Of a stretch of DNA of 64,000 nt, positions 25,028 through 39,972 are shown in pieces. Numbering within the stretch: position 1 is the stretch's first letter; each line of letters starts with the position of its first letter. Location of the stretch: contig CAUAFL010000004.1 of the NCBI GenBank assembly GCA_958428295.1, forward strand, positions 9,892-73,891, given 5' to 3'. This DNA comes from an uncultured Bacillota bacterium (GTDB lineage Bacteria; Bacillota_I; Bacilli_A; RF39; UBA660). The notes beneath the pieces are model-generated. The model was not told the origin of the DNA. It saw nothing but the letters and a program-made list of their open reading frames with translations, and made no database searches. The translations under genes were made by a program, and so were the position numbers.

Positions 25028-25062
25028 GGGAGTAGATTTTGAATGCTGGCTAGGACATAAAA
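25028..25062. repeat. 35-nt conserved motif, copy 1
   Basis: GGGAGTAGATTTTGAATGCTGGCTAGGACATAAAA. 32 of 35 positions are identical to 29042-29076. Confidence 0.8.
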
Positions 25063-25094
25063 TTGTAACTATAATGTTCAGGGTCTTTCTAATA

Positions 25095-26072
25095 CTATTT
25101 TAAATCTTTATAATGTACCATATATGTTTTTATATTATTAGTATCATTTTCATTTATTTCAAAAATTCTACCACCTCTCAAATCATCTGTTCCATAAGGG
25201 CTATAACCAGCACAGGCATCTAAACACATTTTAACATTGCAAAAAGTTCCTTCAAAACAATCGTTATGACTATGACCACATGCAATACAAATGATGTCTT
25301 TTCTTTGAAGTATAGTAGAAAACAATCCAGAATTAAGCATTCCTATTTTCATAACTTCCTTTGTACTTCCTGTACACTTGGTTACAATTGGATTATCTAC
25401 GATATATTGAAATTCCCATGCTGGTATATGCATAAATAAGATTCCATTTATTCGATTTCCACAATAATCTTCTATTTCTTTTGAACTATTCCAATACCAC
25501 ATTAATTGTTCAAAATGTACAATATCCCATTTATCTGACATTGAGGGCATATTCATTAATTTTATATTTTTGTCTATATCTATATTAGAATGTCTTATTT
25601 CATTATTTGAATCCATTCCCCAAATATTAAAAGCAATATCATCATTTTTTGAATTTTTAATAGGTAATACAAAATTAGTAGTTCCATAAATATTTTCAGT
25701 ATGTTTTGAAATACAATATTTAAAATTTTCATACATTTTTGTTTTTGTAATATCATCAATTTCAATATCATGGTCATGATTTCCAAAGATATGTGCCCAT
25801 GGAATTTTTCGTTTTTCCATTGGTTGAGTAAAAATTTCTAAATATTTTTTTATTTCTTCTTCTGTCTTTAATATCGTTCCATCACAATTATCTCCACCTA
25901 AAATAATAAAATTAGGTTGAGTTTTTTCAATTAGTTTATCCATATATTCTAATGTTTTCACATCATAGCTTAATGTTTCTTGAATATCTGACATCATTAA
26001 TATTTTGAATTTCCCATTTTCGTTAAATTTTAATTCATGTTTGGTATATAAATTTGTATCTAAATTATTCAT
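25095..26072 (-). CDS. Calcineurin-like metallophosphoesterase
   Basis: MMSDIQ, GGDNCD, GNHDHD and GHSHND motifs. Confidence 0.8.
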   Translation of the reverse strand: MNNLDTNLYTKHELKFNENGKFKILMMSDIQETLSYDVKTLEYMDKLIEKTQPNFIILGGDNCDGTILKTEEEIKKYLEIFTQPMEKRKIPWAHIFGNHDHDIEIDDITKTKMYENFKYCISKHTENIYGTTNFVLPIKNSKNDDIAFNIWGMDSNNEIRHSNIDIDKNIKLMNMPSMSDKWDIVHFEQLMWYWNSSKEIEDYCGNRINGILFMHIPAWEFQYIVDNPIVTKCTGSTKEVMKIGMLNSGLFSTILQRKDIICIACGHSHNDCFEGTFCNVKMCLDACAGYSPYGTDDLRGGRIFEINENDTNNIKTYMVHYKDLK

Positions 26073-26151
26073 TTACTTCCCCCATTATGTACTAAATAGT
26101 TAAAATATAGTTTTATTATAGTATATTATAACATAATTTTAATAGCTAAAA

Positions 26152-26926
26152 TTATTTATTTTCTTGTAACCACTTATAAACATCATCTTCAGTAAGTTCT
26201 CCATGTTTTAGTTTTGTGATTTTTTCTTTGGCTTGTTTTTTCCAAGTTTCAAATTCTGTCTTTAATTTTTTATCATCTTTGTTTTTATTTACTATGCCAA
26301 ATTTTTGTTGATATGTTTTTCTGTATTCTGTATATGCTGATTTTTCTTGTAATCTTTTGTTATAAGAAAGTATTGCTCCTTGTTCTCTGCAAGTTTTTCC
26401 GTTTTCTTTTGGATAATCACAATATATTTCATCTAATCTTGAGTTTGGTATAAAATACATACCACAGTTTTGACATTTTTTATTGGGTAGTTATCTGTTT
26501 TTGATAATTCTTCTAATATAGCATAGCAAATATTTGATATATCATTACTTTTATGAGTATTTACCATTGATATAAGCATACCTTCTTCTTTTAGTTTCTT
26601 TAGAAGGTCAATATCTGCTGAATTTCCTAGTTCTTCATATTTATTAGAATAGTTATCTTGTATTACTTCATCATTTTTTATATACGAATATAGTTTGCCT
26701 TTCCTTTTTATTAGATATACTGCATATCTTTGTGAATGTGTAAATGAATTTAGGTCTTCTATTTCATTTATATTATATATGTAATTAACGGCATCTGTTA
26801 TTTGTTCTTGTATGTATATAAGTTGTTCTTTTAGATTGTCATATATCTTTTTTGTTTCTTTTAGATATGTTTCATCATCTTCATATTTTCCTTTTAGTTC
26901 AAATTTATAGTCTTTATCTATATCTT
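26152..26926 (-). pseudogene. Frameshifted and 5'-truncated gene of unknown function (Cys-containing, transposon-associated type)
   Basis: The 102-aa ORF (26152-26460) continues upstream as ...KKCQNCG MYFIPNS, but an in-frame stop sits at 26491-26493. Another frame stays open from about 26494 to 26926 (for example NEIEDLNSFTHSQRYAVYLIKRKGKLYSY). Confidence 0.5.
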
Positions 26927-27088
26927 TTAGTATTTCAAATCCTCATAAATTTTAAATACTTCATATCCTTTAAAAGAACATAACTGCAATAATTTTTCTT
27001 TTTGTTCTCCTAAAGAAAATCCCTCTCGTACTTGATCTTCAGTTGAAACACGAATATAAACTGCTGCGATACTCCTTTCATTATCCAT
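26927..27088 (-). pseudogene. 5' stub of a large serine recombinase gene
   Basis: [50 protein letters not shown] then LKY-stop. Near-identical to the N-terminus of the 29684-31546 recombinase. Similarity breaks at about 26940. Confidence 0.85.
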
Positions 27089-37270: not shown

Positions 37271-37390
37271 ATCTCCTTTCTTTGTGTTTTTTTAGCTATA
37301 TTTTGTTTTGACAAAATATTTAACCCCCTAGGAATTTTGTCATACTAACAAAATACGGGGGCTAAGGCTCGCCTTAGAATCCAGAAGGAA

Positions 37391-39316
37391 CTATGCTTTG
37401 GCAATAGTTTCTTCATTATCGTATAATTCTTCATAAGTAATATGTTTTACATCAATAGTAATAGGTTCTTTTGAAAAAATAACTCTATCACATATATCAG
37501 GTATATATTTAAAAACGACATCTTCACTTGCTTTATAAAGTTCATTATTTTTATTAACATATAAAACTCCATAGTTATGAATATCTTTTTTATTTTGAGA
37601 ATCTATCTTTTTATAATCTTTCATAGGAAATACTCTAACTATATCTGCTTTGTTTTCATCTAATTCAAATTTAAATACTTGATCTTGAACATAGTATTCA
37701 GCTTCATAAAATCTTACATCATAAAATTGTCTTAGTCTTATGATATGTTCTGATATTTTATCAAAAGGAAGATACTCACTAAATCTTATATAACCTGCAA
37801 AATTTCCAAACATTTGAATTTTCTTATCTAAGTATCCTTGATTTTCTAATTCAGTCATTGGTTTACAAATAGATTCTCTAAATTTAACAAATTTAACTTC
37901 GTATTTATTATTAACTTTATCAAGTTCTATTTCATCAACATATCTCATTATTAACTCTGATTTTTCTTCTCTAGTGTAATCTTTCCAAAATTTATTAAAA
38001 TTTTGATATTTATCAGGATATTTAATTTTATTGATAAAATCAATATCTCTTTTTAATAATATATCTTCAGAAGTAAATCGTAGTTCATCACTTACTTCAG
38101 TATCCATAATTTTATTTTCTAAACTCTCAATTGTTTTATCAATATTCCTTTTCTCTTTTTTATAATCTTCTAAAAGAAATACGCCTTCAAGATATGCTTG
38201 TTTTAATCTCTCATCTTTAGCCTTTAATTCTTTAATCTCTTTTTCTAATTGATCTATAGGATTTTCAATTTTTTGCTTAATCATAGGTAAGAAAAATTGA
38301 TTAACAACTGAATCATATTCTACAATATCATCAATGAAATTTTTTATATAATTTTCAATTGTTTCTTCTTTAATGTTGCATTTACAATCAGTACAATAAT
38401 AGTAGTAATATACATTTCCGTTTTTCTTCTTTGTTGCTTTACCACCCATAATTCTATTACAATGAGGACACTTCAATTTTTGTAAAAACAAGTAAGTTAA
38501 ATTTCTAATATAACTACGAGAATTTTTCTTCTTTTGTACCTGACATTCTTCCCATAATTCACGAGATACAATTGGTTCAACAACATCTTTATAGTAAATA
38601 GGATTCTTTGTTCTTTTGCCATGCACAAAATCGCCTTTATAGACTTCATTTTGTAAGATAGTAGTTATAGTAGAATCACACCAGTTTTCTTTGCCTAAAA
38701 TCTTTTCTTTATTAAATAGATTACTAATCTTTTGGTAGGACATACCACTATGATAAAGTTCAAATATTCTAACAACAATATCCTTTGTTAATGGATTAGG
38801 AACTAACATTTTGTTTTCATGTTTATAACCTAAACAAGCCCTGTATGGTAAATGTCCTTTTTTGATTGCACCAGCTAATCCAAATTTAGTTCTTTCTGAT
38901 GTTCTTTCAATTTCAAGTTGAGCAAGTATAGTAGTCATTCTCATAAAGAAGATACCAGTTGAAGTTTCAGTATTTAATTCCTCGCATATGCTTTCTAAAC
39001 TACAATTGGTTTCTCCTAGCAAATTACAAATGAACTCTAAATCTTGAATAGAACGAGTAAGTCTATCAAGTTTATAAACAATAATTTTGTTTATTTTTCC
39101 ATCTTTCATATCTTGAACCATTTCTTGAAATTTAGGTCGTTTCATATTTTTAGCAGAAACTCCTTCTTCACGATAAATTTTGTAAATCTTATATTTCTTA
39201 TAAACACATAATCTTTTCATGCTTTCTTCTTGCTCATCAAGACTAAAACCTTCACGGACTTGATCTTCTGTGCTTACGCGAGGGTACAATCCACAAATTA
39301 CTTCTTTTTCATTCAA
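37391..39316 (-). CDS. Large serine recombinase
   Basis: [24 protein letters not shown]...CTDC zinc ribbon and a coiled coil. I prefer the in-frame TTG at 39316 (AAAGGAGA SD 11 nt upstream) over the far-upstream ATG at 39430. Confidence 0.85.
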
Positions 39317-39516
39317 TACAAATTCATCTCCTTTTCTTTTTTTCTTGCGACATTTCTTATGACATTTGTTACGACATTTCAAAAAAAGAGAAGTGAAGAT
39401 ACTACTAAATATAATACTTTCACTTCTCAAAACTACATTGTAAGACTATGGGATAACTCTTTATCCACTATATTAATTATACAACTTTTGCCTTAAAATG
39501 TCCATCCTGTGAAAGT

Positions 39517-39792
39517 CTATTTAATAGTGCTTAAGTAATCTTCTAATTCTGATATTTGTATCTTATTCGCTAAATTTCTAATATAAATATCAGTAGAATA
39601 ATTAAATACAAGAAATGTAATACCTTTAATGATAACTCTATGAGGTTCTATAAAGTTTAAATTAGATTTATCAATTCTTCTAATGCTACCATTAATAAAT
39701 ATGGGTTTGGTTTTACAAAACTGACAGATAAACTCTAATCTTTGCTTTAAAGACTTCTCAAAAGGTATCTCTTGTGTGATAAACTGAATCAT
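39517..39792 (-). CDS. Recombinase-associated small protein, copy C (divergent)
   Basis: Start moved to MIQFITQE (91 aa). FCKTKPIFINGSIRRI...IEPHRVIIKGITFLVFN...IRNLANKIQISELEDYL aligns with copies A and B. Confidence 0.6.
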   Translation of the reverse strand: MIQFITQEIPFEKSLKQRLEFICQFCKTKPIFINGSIRRIDKSNLNFIEPHRVIIKGITFLVFNYSTDIYIRNLANKIQISELEDYLSTIK

Positions 39793-39898
39793 AAACACCA
39801 TCCTTCCTTTAGGATGATTTCTTTGTAATAACAAAAAAACCAATCTTTTGATTGATTTCTATATATCAATGTTCGAAAAATTCGAACAGATTCGTCAA

Positions 39899-39972
39899 TG
39901 GAGCGGATGAGGAGAATCGAACTCCCGTAGTTAGCTTGGAAGGCTAAGGTTCTACCATTAAACTACATCCGC
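39899..39972 (-). tRNA. tRNA-Gly (anticodon UCC)
   Basis: Acceptor GCGGATG/CATCCGC, anticodon arm TTAGC-CTTCCAA-GCTAA, GTTCGATTC T-loop and encoded CCA. Confidence 0.9.

Follow-up and report, generated by a model that had tools for sequence, protein, structure and literature searches.

A probable array of small integrative elements with large serine recombinases at the 3' end of a tRNA-Gly gene in an uncultured Bacillota bacterium

Introduction

Can a large serine recombinase (LSR) use the 3' end of a tRNA gene as its integration site? tRNA genes have been described as targets of tyrosine integrases only (PMC4383910). Integrative mobilizable elements of Firmicutes with serine integrases insert within genes, such as rumA, traG, maff2 or snf2, disrupting them (PMC5357655, PMC5704250). 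The question is raised by a 64,000 nt stretch from the genome of an uncultured Bacillota bacterium (assembly GCA_958428295.1, contig CAUAFL010000004.1, positions 9,892 to 73,891 of the forward strand). We call this whole stretch the window, and all coordinates without a locus number refer to it. An initial annotation, made from the sequence alone, proposed that three serine recombinase elements are piled up head to tail at a tRNA-Gly(UCC) gene, each one starting with an imitation of the tRNA 3' end.

We conclude, with a probability of about 0.8, that this region is an array of small (about 4–8 kb) integrative elements moved by LSRs, which use the last six bases of the tRNA as a common attachment (att) core. 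The elements are numbered as units 1, 2 and 3, counting outwards from the tRNA, and their features are collected in Table 1.

Materials and Methods

tRNA genes were called with ARAGORN and Rfam, protein domains with Pfam, NCBIfam and PHROGs, and defence systems with PADLOC. The G+C content of the window region is about 25–31%. Relatives were gathered by homology to the small open reading frame (ORF) of the modules alone, so that the tRNA context of the loci can serve as an independent test. When one genome was scanned for each species, 207 relatives were obtained, and 80 loci from other species were fetched for comparison. They are mostly metagenome-assembled genomes (MAGs) of uncultured gut Bacilli and Clostridia, whose hosts are humans, mice, rabbits, ruminants and chickens. 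The count covers 88 LSR modules in which the N-terminus is present; the window contributes three of these. Arrays have been counted over 68 loci, and the pairing of arm types with LSR types has been read from 19 loci with at least two modules. The attachment site of the element (attP) was reconstructed as right arm, core and left arm for 39 delimited elements of 2.8–11.9 kb, some of which may be composite. Dyad symmetry was scored over 24 positions around every candidate central dinucleotide, with shuffled sequences as the null.

The array and its repeated module

The array contains a single tRNA gene, tRNA-Gly(UCC); no other tRNA or pseudo-tRNA is found in it by ARAGORN or Rfam. A sigma-70 consensus with a 12/12 match lies upstream, at 40056-40028. 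On the minus strand the tRNA ends in CATCCGCTCCA (39909-39899). The two near copies of this end which had been pointed out are present where the initial annotation placed them, on the same strand: CATTCGCTCCA at 32079-32069, which resembles the tRNA at 10 of 11 positions, and (G)ATTCGCTCCA, that is GATTCGCTCCA, at 27624/27623-27614, with a resemblance at 9 of 10 positions. Such strings are over-represented. The motif CATYCGCTCCA, allowing one mismatch, is found seven times in the window, the expected number is 0.54 and none of 100 shuffles reached seven.

The recurring order of hairpin with T-run, ORF of about 90 amino acids and serine recombinase is seen three times. Two stable hairpins lie behind each copy, the latter of them with a run of 7–8 U (z = -3.4 to -4.0). 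A homologous ORF of 90–91 amino acids starts 107, 116 and 117 nt past the CCA in units 1, 2 and 3, respectively. The next gene codes for an LSR with Resolvase, Recombinase and Zn-ribbon domains (Pfam), although the Zn ribbon of LSR1, with 23.8 bits, is slightly below the cut-off and the copy in unit 3 is only a stump. LSR1 and LSR2 are both full length and 40% identical. They carry the Pfam Resolvase and Recombinase domains and the RVSTEDQ motif, and they match phrog_95, 'integrase' (1e-111). LSRs are proteins of about 450–700 aa in which an N-terminal resolvase domain with the active-site serine precedes a recombinase domain and a zinc-ribbon/coiled-coil region. By their features LSR1 and LSR2 are ordinary LSRs, and they belong to no named subfamily. 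The best NCBIfam matches are CcrB (about 140 bits, cut-off 900) and CcrC (102–116 bits, cut-off 900), with XisF also far below its cut-off. The closest solved structures cover the LSR catalytic domain only. No tyrosine (phage-type) integrase domain appears among the ORFs of units 1–3 scanned against Pfam.

The element family in other genomes

The small ORF has 378 homologues at 90% clustering. It has no match in Pfam, NCBIfam or PHROGs, and a fold search with the model of the unit 2 protein gave no match in the PDB. Three LSR types may be distinguished, LSR1, LSR2 and LSR3, and the position of the small ORF is kept in all of them, with weak homology to the LSR3-type ORF (hhalign E = 4e-4). Our guess is that it is an accessory or directionality factor.

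The tRNA 3' end lies exactly at the core of the module in 46 of the 88 modules: tRNA-Gly(UCC) in 28 of them, tRNA-Gly(GCC) in 17 and tRNA-Thr(GGU) in one. A count based on the small ORF also shows tRNA-Gly(CCC) and tRNA-Thr(CGU) as targets. In another 34 modules the core, GCTCCA, is preceded not by a tRNA but by the right end of a neighbouring element. From the core to the start of the LSR there are 393–653 nt. Arrays are common, with at least two modules in the same orientation in 19 of the 68 loci. For example, tRNA-Gly(UCC), a unit-1-like element and a unit-2-like element follow one another in locus L031 just as they do in the window. The backbone of L031 is 90% identical to that of the window and its LSR1 is 92% identical. 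Its cargo differs from that of the window and its host flank does not align, which would be expected of a mobile element.

The part of the earlier proposal which stands is thus the site-specific insertion of LSR elements at the tRNA 3' end, head to tail. The length and ownership of the tRNA-like strings, the integrity of unit 2, the left limit and the order of arrival are the parts which do not, as described below. Apparently, this is a large and undescribed family of elements. We have found no description of LSR elements at tRNA-Gly in the literature, with an incomplete coverage which leaves an earlier description possible.

Borders of the elements

Only GCTCCA is constant across all junctions. 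On its upstream side, 13 different acceptor pentamers (positions 66–70) are found at the tRNA junctions, LSR2-type elements alone abut 12 of them, and the acceptor stem is fully paired in 45 of 46 cases. Therefore, positions 66–70 are not supplied by the elements: these bases come from the host, and strand exchange must lie 3' of position 70. The sequence past the A of the CCA depends on the type of element. It is TTGACGAATCTGTTCGAA... in the LSR1 type, [A/T]AAG[G/A]TAAAATCGTCGCACC... in the LSR2 type and TTTGAA.ACAACTTACGGAC... in the LSR3 type (for example in L051, 4853-9902). With a host-specific sequence upstream and a type-specific sequence downstream, the exchange must fall within GCTCCA.

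At internal junctions the 30–45 nt before the core belong to a few conserved classes, which run up to the core in every case and have varied neighbours behind it. For this reason we consider them the right (P) arms of the preceding elements. Array loci show how arms and LSRs are paired: the GTTCGTAA... arm closes LSR3 elements (5/5), the GTTGTAGATA... arm closes the near relatives of LSR1 (4/4), and a third arm, TTTTCG.ATA..GTA.AGTTA.., closes LSR2 elements (5/5). Further LSR2 elements, from single-module loci, have an arm of this third family.

These results shorten the string of 10–11 nt which had been thought to be shared. The common part is 6 bp, GCTCCA, and the CATTC or ATTC in front of it is the core-proximal stretch of the right arm of the element before, not the beginning of the one that follows. 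The borders, which had been placed at 32078/32079 and 27623/27624, lie within 39899-39904, 32069-32074 and 27614-27619. Right arms of other classes, such as ...GTTAAG-GCTCCA and ...GTTATC-GCTCCA, resemble the tRNA at the core only.

The window has a second possible target, a tRNA-Gly(GCC) at 55400-55525 (plus strand), which also ends in GCTCCA and is unoccupied. Its terminator, at 55475-55525 (TTTGAAGATAACTTACGGAC...GTTCTGTAAGTTTTT), is nearly identical to the LSR3-type left arm of other genomes. We considered the sequence TTTGAA..ACTTACGGAC as a marker of empty sites and have rejected it: four of the five tRNA sites of this type which were examined precede an LSR3-type element, and only the tRNA-Gly(GCC) of the window is truly unoccupied.

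Crossover and proposed mechanism

LSRs bind as a dimer to each att site and cut the four strands at the central 2 bp; after a rotation of the subunits the ends are joined again. Only at the central dinucleotide must the two sites be identical. In LSR3-type attP sites the axis of symmetry falls on the CT of G-CT-CCA in 5/5 elements, with 15–17 of 24 positions (shuffle null 7.6 +/- 2.1, maximum 15). In the LSR1 type no other axis equals CT in 4/4 close relatives, with 10–12 of 24; the reconstructed attP of unit 1 is among them, with a single best axis on CT (11/24). A CT dinucleotide is not palindromic and thus suits the directional crossover of a serine integrase. The proposal also fits the range of targets, all of which have G71-C72-U73. 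The adjacent tRNA-Cys, which ends in CCTCCA and lies beside tRNA-Gly(GCC) in many loci, is never used. The crossover is likely to be at C72-U73, with the weakest case in the LSR2 type. A crossover 2–3 nt beyond the CCA, suggested by one weak palindrome, was also considered and rejected: the left arms of different types share nothing past the A of the CCA.

According to the mechanism which we propose, the LSR would bring together the 3' end of a tRNA-Gly gene, occasionally tRNA-Thr, and the attP of a circular element, made up of right arm, GCTCCA and left arm. It would cut at a 2 bp crossover within the core, most likely C72-U73, and exchange the strands. The tRNA sequence would be kept: from the crossover on, its end would be element DNA, and the element would bring its own CCA with the hairpins and the U-run. 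Such hairpins would end the tRNA transcript, as those in the left arm of unit 1 are predicted to do in the window, and would shield the operon of small ORF and LSR from the strong tRNA promoter. After integration the core would be present on both sides of the element. Because both junctions retain this core, which is common to all types, a second element could enter beside the first, and arrays would be formed. We infer that the LSRs may be active at present.

The initial annotation assumed that the newest element lies next to the tRNA. This order is plausible only: in other genomes we find both tRNA-LSR3-LSR2 (L009, L022, L040, L051) and tRNA-LSR2-LSR3 (L071, L073, L079). The sequence of the LSR3 subtype favours growth on the tRNA side. 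The left arm of this subtype is almost identical to the terminator behind the unoccupied tRNA-Gly(GCC), so its integration would recreate a site similar to attB.

The target may not be used by LSRs alone. In several contigs (L058 9889-9906, and the IMG/VR loci L087-L095) an LSR2-type element lies behind a tRNA-Gly 3' fragment of 10–45 nt, not behind a tRNA. This suggests that a tyrosine-type island or prophage entered between the tRNA and the LSR element, and that the hotspot is common to both classes. Another arrangement is found in L066 (4486-9208), with three tRNA-Gly(UCC) genes around one element; one of these genes starts about 8 nt past the right arm and core.

The three units of the window

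Table 1. Features of the tRNA-Gly(UCC) array and of the adjacent distal region.
Feature	Position	Strand	Description
tRNA-Gly(UCC), intact	39899..39972	-	Last 6 nt (39904-39899) GCTCCA = G71 C72 U73 C74 C75 A76, proposed recombination core
Unit 1 left (P') arm	39810..39898	-	Two hairpins, second with U7; -21.5 kcal/mol, z -3.9
Unit 1 small ORF, 91 aa	39517..39792	-	34% identical to unit 2 ORF; family without annotation
LSR1	37391..39430	-	Resolvase 5e-33, Recombinase 8e-19, Zn ribbon; catalytic RVSTEDQ; likely true start near 39301
Unit 1 MobV/Mob_Pre relaxase	35888..37270	-	Domain match
Unit 1 cargo, DUF3800 protein and 157-aa partner	34667..35835	-	PADLOC candidate defence system PDC-M04: A 1e-75, B 7e-37
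Unit 1 cargo, PurZ/PurA-like gene	33140-34513	+	Best NCBIfam match PurZ, 171.8 bits (cut-off 300)
Unit 1 cargo, Ppx/GppA-like gene	32141-33118	+	
Unit 1 right (P) arm and core copy 2	32069..32120	-	...GTTGTAGATATCTACGCCATTC 32120-32075, then GCTCCA 32074-32069
Unit 2 left (P') arm	31975..32068	-	AAAGGTAAAATCGTCGCACC..., two hairpins and U7
Unit 2 small ORF, 90 aa	31681..31953	-	AlphaFold 2 model, pLDDT 93.5
LSR2, full length	29684..31615	-	Domain matches
Unit 2 ORF, 105 aa	29455-29772	-	
Unit 2 TnpV homologue	29089-29451	-	TnpV 1.7e-28
Conserved non-coding motif after tnpV	29012..29076	-	Inverted repeats; candidate oriT or terminator
Class-I glutamine amidotransferase / peptidase C26, right part of unit 2	28357-29007	+	
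NT5C-like nucleotidase, cargo in right part of unit 2	27759-28376	+	
Unit 2 right (P) arm and core copy 3	27614..27665	-	AGAAAGAGAA..GTTCGTAACTTGTATGTGATTC 27665-27620, then GCTCCA 27619-27614
Unit 3 left (P') arm	27520..27613	-	Hairpins and U8; repeat D6 of 76 nt (70 arm nt and 6-nt core), 100% identical to unit 2
Unit 3 small ORF, 90 aa, intact	27225..27497	-	93% identical to unit 2 ORF
Unit 3 LSR stump, LSR2-type	26927..27154	-	N-terminal ~53-75 codons only
Unit 3 DUF6076 fragment	26152-26460	-	
Unit 3 metallophosphoesterase	25095-26072	-	
Unit 3 truncated copy of post-tnpV motif	25028-25062	-	Breaks off after CTACTCCC
Dam-type methyltransferase / TdeIII restriction-modification pair	22963-24997		Possible further unit 3 cargo
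Type III restriction-modification system, res/mod	18851-22791		Possible further unit 3 cargo

Unit 1, from 39898 to 32075, is an apparently intact mobilizable element, with matched arms, an LSR and a relaxase. Its left arm is also found behind tRNA-Gly in L031 and behind the end of another element in L043 and L037. Its right arm precedes the core in L023, L031, L043, L050, L069 and L072. With its own LSR, a MobV relaxase and no genes for a type IV secretion system, it is classified as an integrative mobilizable element, and MobV suggests that it could be mobilized by a conjugative helper. PurZ is an enzyme of the phage aminoadenine pathway, and a PurZ-like gene paired with a Ppx/GppA-like gene is unusual on a small mobile element. 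This nucleotide-metabolism pair might have a defence or counter-defence function.

Unit 2 (32068 to 27620) does not have the ends of one pristine insertion. Its left arm belongs to the LSR2 type, found behind tRNA-Gly(UCC), tRNA-Gly(GCC), tRNA-Gly(CCC) or tRNA-Thr in more than 35 other loci. Its right arm, whose end ...GTTCGTAACTTGTATGTGATTC (27641-27620) is seen again in about 15 loci, accompanies LSR3-type elements in five other loci; LSR2 elements elsewhere end differently. The reconstructed 'attP' of this unit shows no symmetry (8/24). Unit 2 is therefore a chimera, with an LSR2-type left end and an LSR3-type right arm. To judge from these ends, two neighbouring elements have probably been fused by an internal deletion. 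The homology for this fusion could have been supplied by tnpV and the motif behind it, which are present in LSR2 and LSR3 types. This motif reads GTCCTAGCCAGCACTGAAAACCTACTCCC..., followed by the hairpin TATGGGAAATCCCATA, and is found in L003, L022, L040, L044, L049, L051 and L066. Unit 2 has TnpV and the conserved motif, and no relaxase.

Two other features of unit 2 may be mentioned. The LSR2-type left arm has a second GCACCA, 21 nt past the core, in the first hairpin (CGTCGCACCAATGTGACG), at 32048-32053 and, in unit 3, at 27593-27598 (minus strand). In other loci, variants of this hairpin preserve its structure with different sequences (AAGCGATG, AAGTGACG). The NT5C-like deoxynucleotidase gene overlaps the glutamine amidotransferase gene (27759-29007), without any PADLOC match; this pair could have another nucleotide-directed function.

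Unit 3, from 27613 leftwards, is by its gene content a remnant. There is no right end, and very little is left of the LSR. Its outer limit at 25028 is not an end, but the place where a truncated copy of the post-tnpV motif breaks off. On the minus strand, no right arm or GCTCCA junction is found between 14000 and 27600, and neither right-arm motifs, nor a native terminator, nor any G[CG][TA]CCA junction are present in the same interval. The two back-to-back restriction-modification systems at 18851-24997 may be former cargo of unit 3; no junction was found for them. In L046 a homologue of the type III system lies behind tnpV as element cargo (1117-4919).

On the distal side, the core genes and helix-turn-helix gene at 9856-18272 of the window have syntenic counterparts in L053 (1232-9692), which immediately precede the tRNA-Gly(UCC) of that locus and share its strand. 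The last ~54 nt of the window tRNA-Gly(UCC) are identical to those of the L053 tRNA. In the window the array separates the tRNA gene from the syntenic block, at a distance of 21.6 kb, and the two are on opposite strands. No homology to the window is seen in the far flank of L053. A TfoX N-terminal gene (18449-18748, plus strand) and a TfoX C-terminal gene (43048-43305, minus strand) are found on either side of the island region. An inversion of the tRNA and the array, suggested by the synteny with L053, was considered and found to be unsupported: TfoX_N and TfoX_C are separate complete genes with their own start and stop, not parts of a split gene.

Immediately upstream of the tRNA, at 40270-42879 (minus strand), there is a gene for an 869-aa superfamily 1 helicase whose C-terminal domain, DUF2726/DUF559, is nuclease-like. 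The protein has matches to the MkoA and MkoC models of the Mokosh system, so that the tRNA is flanked by defence genes on both sides.

Points against and alternative explanations

Several observations weigh against an array built by site-specific integration. The commonest type of attP, LSR2, has no axis above background (8–10/24), and a CT crossover is unsupported there. Neither a right end of unit 3 nor the sequence which originally followed the tRNA is present. Recombination by LSRs normally requires both attB half-sites, and at stacked sites the far half is the arm of a resident element. For this strain we have recovered no excised circle, empty site or polymorphic state. Look-ups of exact proteins (TfoX_N and the PurZ-like protein) give other contigs of the same strain with the same arrangement, and the small ORFs of the units are not on record in such look-ups. 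The strain is present in the sequencing runs ERR14020850, ERR13982091 and ERR13985500. A metagenome scan for the LSR2-type attP junction gave four contigs with the same junction, a chromosomal tandem of two LSR2-type units. In L084 the junction lies within a 197-kb contig, in L083 two successive junctions are 2.8 kb apart, and no terminal overlap, as a circular form would have, is found in the three whole contigs tested (L083, L085, L086).

Units 2 and 3 might also come from a local duplication, or from unequal homologous recombination of the left module, in which case the array would have grown in part without site-specific integration. The left modules of both units are 93–100% identical in DNA sequence, with 76 nt at 100%, unit 3 lacks the LSR body and the right end, and the arms of unit 2 are mismatched. 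Against this, the junction between units 2 and 3 holds a complete, conserved right arm which ends exactly at GCTCCA, as in about 15 other loci. A simple duplication of the left module would not create such a junction, and we consider this explanation unlikely. Rearrangement after integration is also part of the account of unit 2 which we favour.

The earlier proposal, taken literally, places the crossover upstream of the 10–11 nt string. Each element would then bring its own copy of the tRNA 3' end, and the copies inside the array would correspond to displaced tRNA ends, like those in the islands of tyrosine integrases. The resemblance of CATTCGCTCCA and ATTCGCTCCA to the tRNA end speaks for it. 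On the other hand, close relatives abut 13 different and correctly paired acceptor sequences, the right arms of other types (such as the one in ...GTTAAG) are unlike the tRNA beyond GCTCCA, and the part similar to CATTC tracks the type of the preceding element, not of the following one. This makes the literal version very improbable. Islander-class islands do resemble the array in several ways: the tRNA 3' end is used, the tRNA is preserved, tandem arrays are formed and the cargo includes defence and metabolic genes (PMC4383910). They differ in having an unrelated enzyme family, a displaced fragment which is typically tens of bp long, compared with 6 bp in the window, and a crossover in the anticodon or T-loop, not at the discriminator and CCA (PMC4383910). 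When the Islander criteria are applied to the window, there is no tyrosine integrase, an intact tRNA is present, and the repeated fragment is only the 6 bp core, the longer likeness coming from the arm of an element.

The units could also be transposons similar to Tn4451, of low specificity, which lie near a tRNA by chance or by a weak preference. TnpV and a Mob_Pre relaxase are hallmarks of Tn4451, and the LSR lies at one end. Tn4451 and Tn4453 (TnpX) of Clostridium and Clostridioides are likewise small Firmicute elements with a terminal LSR, TnpV, Mob/Pre (MobV) and a 2 bp crossover (PMC5704250). Nevertheless, Tn4451 has a low target specificity and no association with tRNA genes (PMC5704250). 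Tn4451 and Tn4453 insert at many sites which resemble the transposon ends, with a GA crossover. In the window family every identifiable junction is at GCTCCA, with an exact tRNA 3' end in more than half of the modules. There is no small ORF upstream of the recombinase in Tn4451, while the window units have one. Of the Tn4451 set of tnpX-type LSR, tnpV and tnpZ (Mob/Pre), the window has TnpV in unit 2 and Mob_Pre in unit 1, never both in one unit. The relation of the window LSRs to TnpX has been judged through plasmid-borne LSRs, none of which exceeds 34% identity to them. An origin of this kind is hardly credible. Finally, chance matches in an ordinary cluster of genes with paralogous recombinases, conceivable in an AT-rich genome where short motifs recur, have a negligible probability, given that none of the 100 shuffles reached the observed count and that the same junction architecture is present in dozens of genomes.

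We therefore keep to the reading of an array of LSR-moved elements with a common core in the tRNA. It may be extended in a tentative way, at slightly less than even odds. According to this extension, a deep and widespread clade of LSRs, with at least three subtypes which are 26–40% identical, would be specialized on the encoded CCA end of tRNA-Gly and tRNA-Thr, with exchange at C72-U73 and always accompanied by a small partner of unknown fold. The 6 bp core would be remade on both sides, the left arm of at least one subtype would copy the native tRNA terminator, and the tRNA end would be an open-ended landing pad for elements laden with defence genes, which stack and recombine there.

Comparison with other systems at the 3' end of genes

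The closest precedent in function seems to be that of the ssrA islands of Dehalococcoides (DsiB/DsiA), which have a CcrB-like LSR beside attL and lie in tandem at the 3' end of the tmRNA gene, with 20 bp repeats (PMC3146451). Like the elements described here, they are site-specific for the 3' end of a tRNA-like gene, they form tandems with direct repeats of the gene end, their integration modules are conserved while the cargo varies, and some units are decayed or lack an integrase (PMC3146451). The target is different: the tmRNA, with an inferred insertion in the T-loop and a repeat of 20 bp, compared with tRNA-Gly or tRNA-Thr and a 6 bp core at the CCA end. The Dehalococcoides islands also have a second, small serine recombinase (DsiA) with RecF-, ParB- and Mom-like genes, whereas the window has one LSR per unit and an unannotated 90-aa ORF. 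The host phylum is also different.

Another known case is SCCmec, whose CcrAB or CcrC recombinases target the 3' end of a housekeeping gene, rlmH; there are usually two recombinases, and the cassettes can be tandem or composite. Insertion at a conserved gene's 3' end and a tandem arrangement are shared with the window. The target, which is not a tRNA, and the presence of two recombinases are not.

Significance

The importance of these results is bounded by the tmRNA precedent and by an LSR activity which is presumed. Within these bounds, the window and about 200 genomes at the species level point to an LSR family which uses the last six bases of tRNA-Gly or tRNA-Thr, leaves the gene undamaged and stacks in arrays. 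If the clade is indeed specialized, the textbook view of tRNA genes as targets of tyrosine integrases alone would be overturned, and uncultured gut Firmicutes would offer a ready-made, conserved target for integrases.

There are also practical consequences. Island finders keyed to tyrosine integrases and to long tRNA fragments will miss these elements. The gap concerns gut MAGs, in which restriction-modification systems and candidate defence genes form part of the cargo. A new candidate for an accessory factor is the 90-aa partner. Serine integrases whose chromosomal target is conserved and already in place could serve for the engineering of Firmicutes which are difficult to manipulate. Since one half of attB is formed by the T-arm and acceptor stem of the tRNA, these arrays also provide a natural experiment on how LSRs read a half-site.

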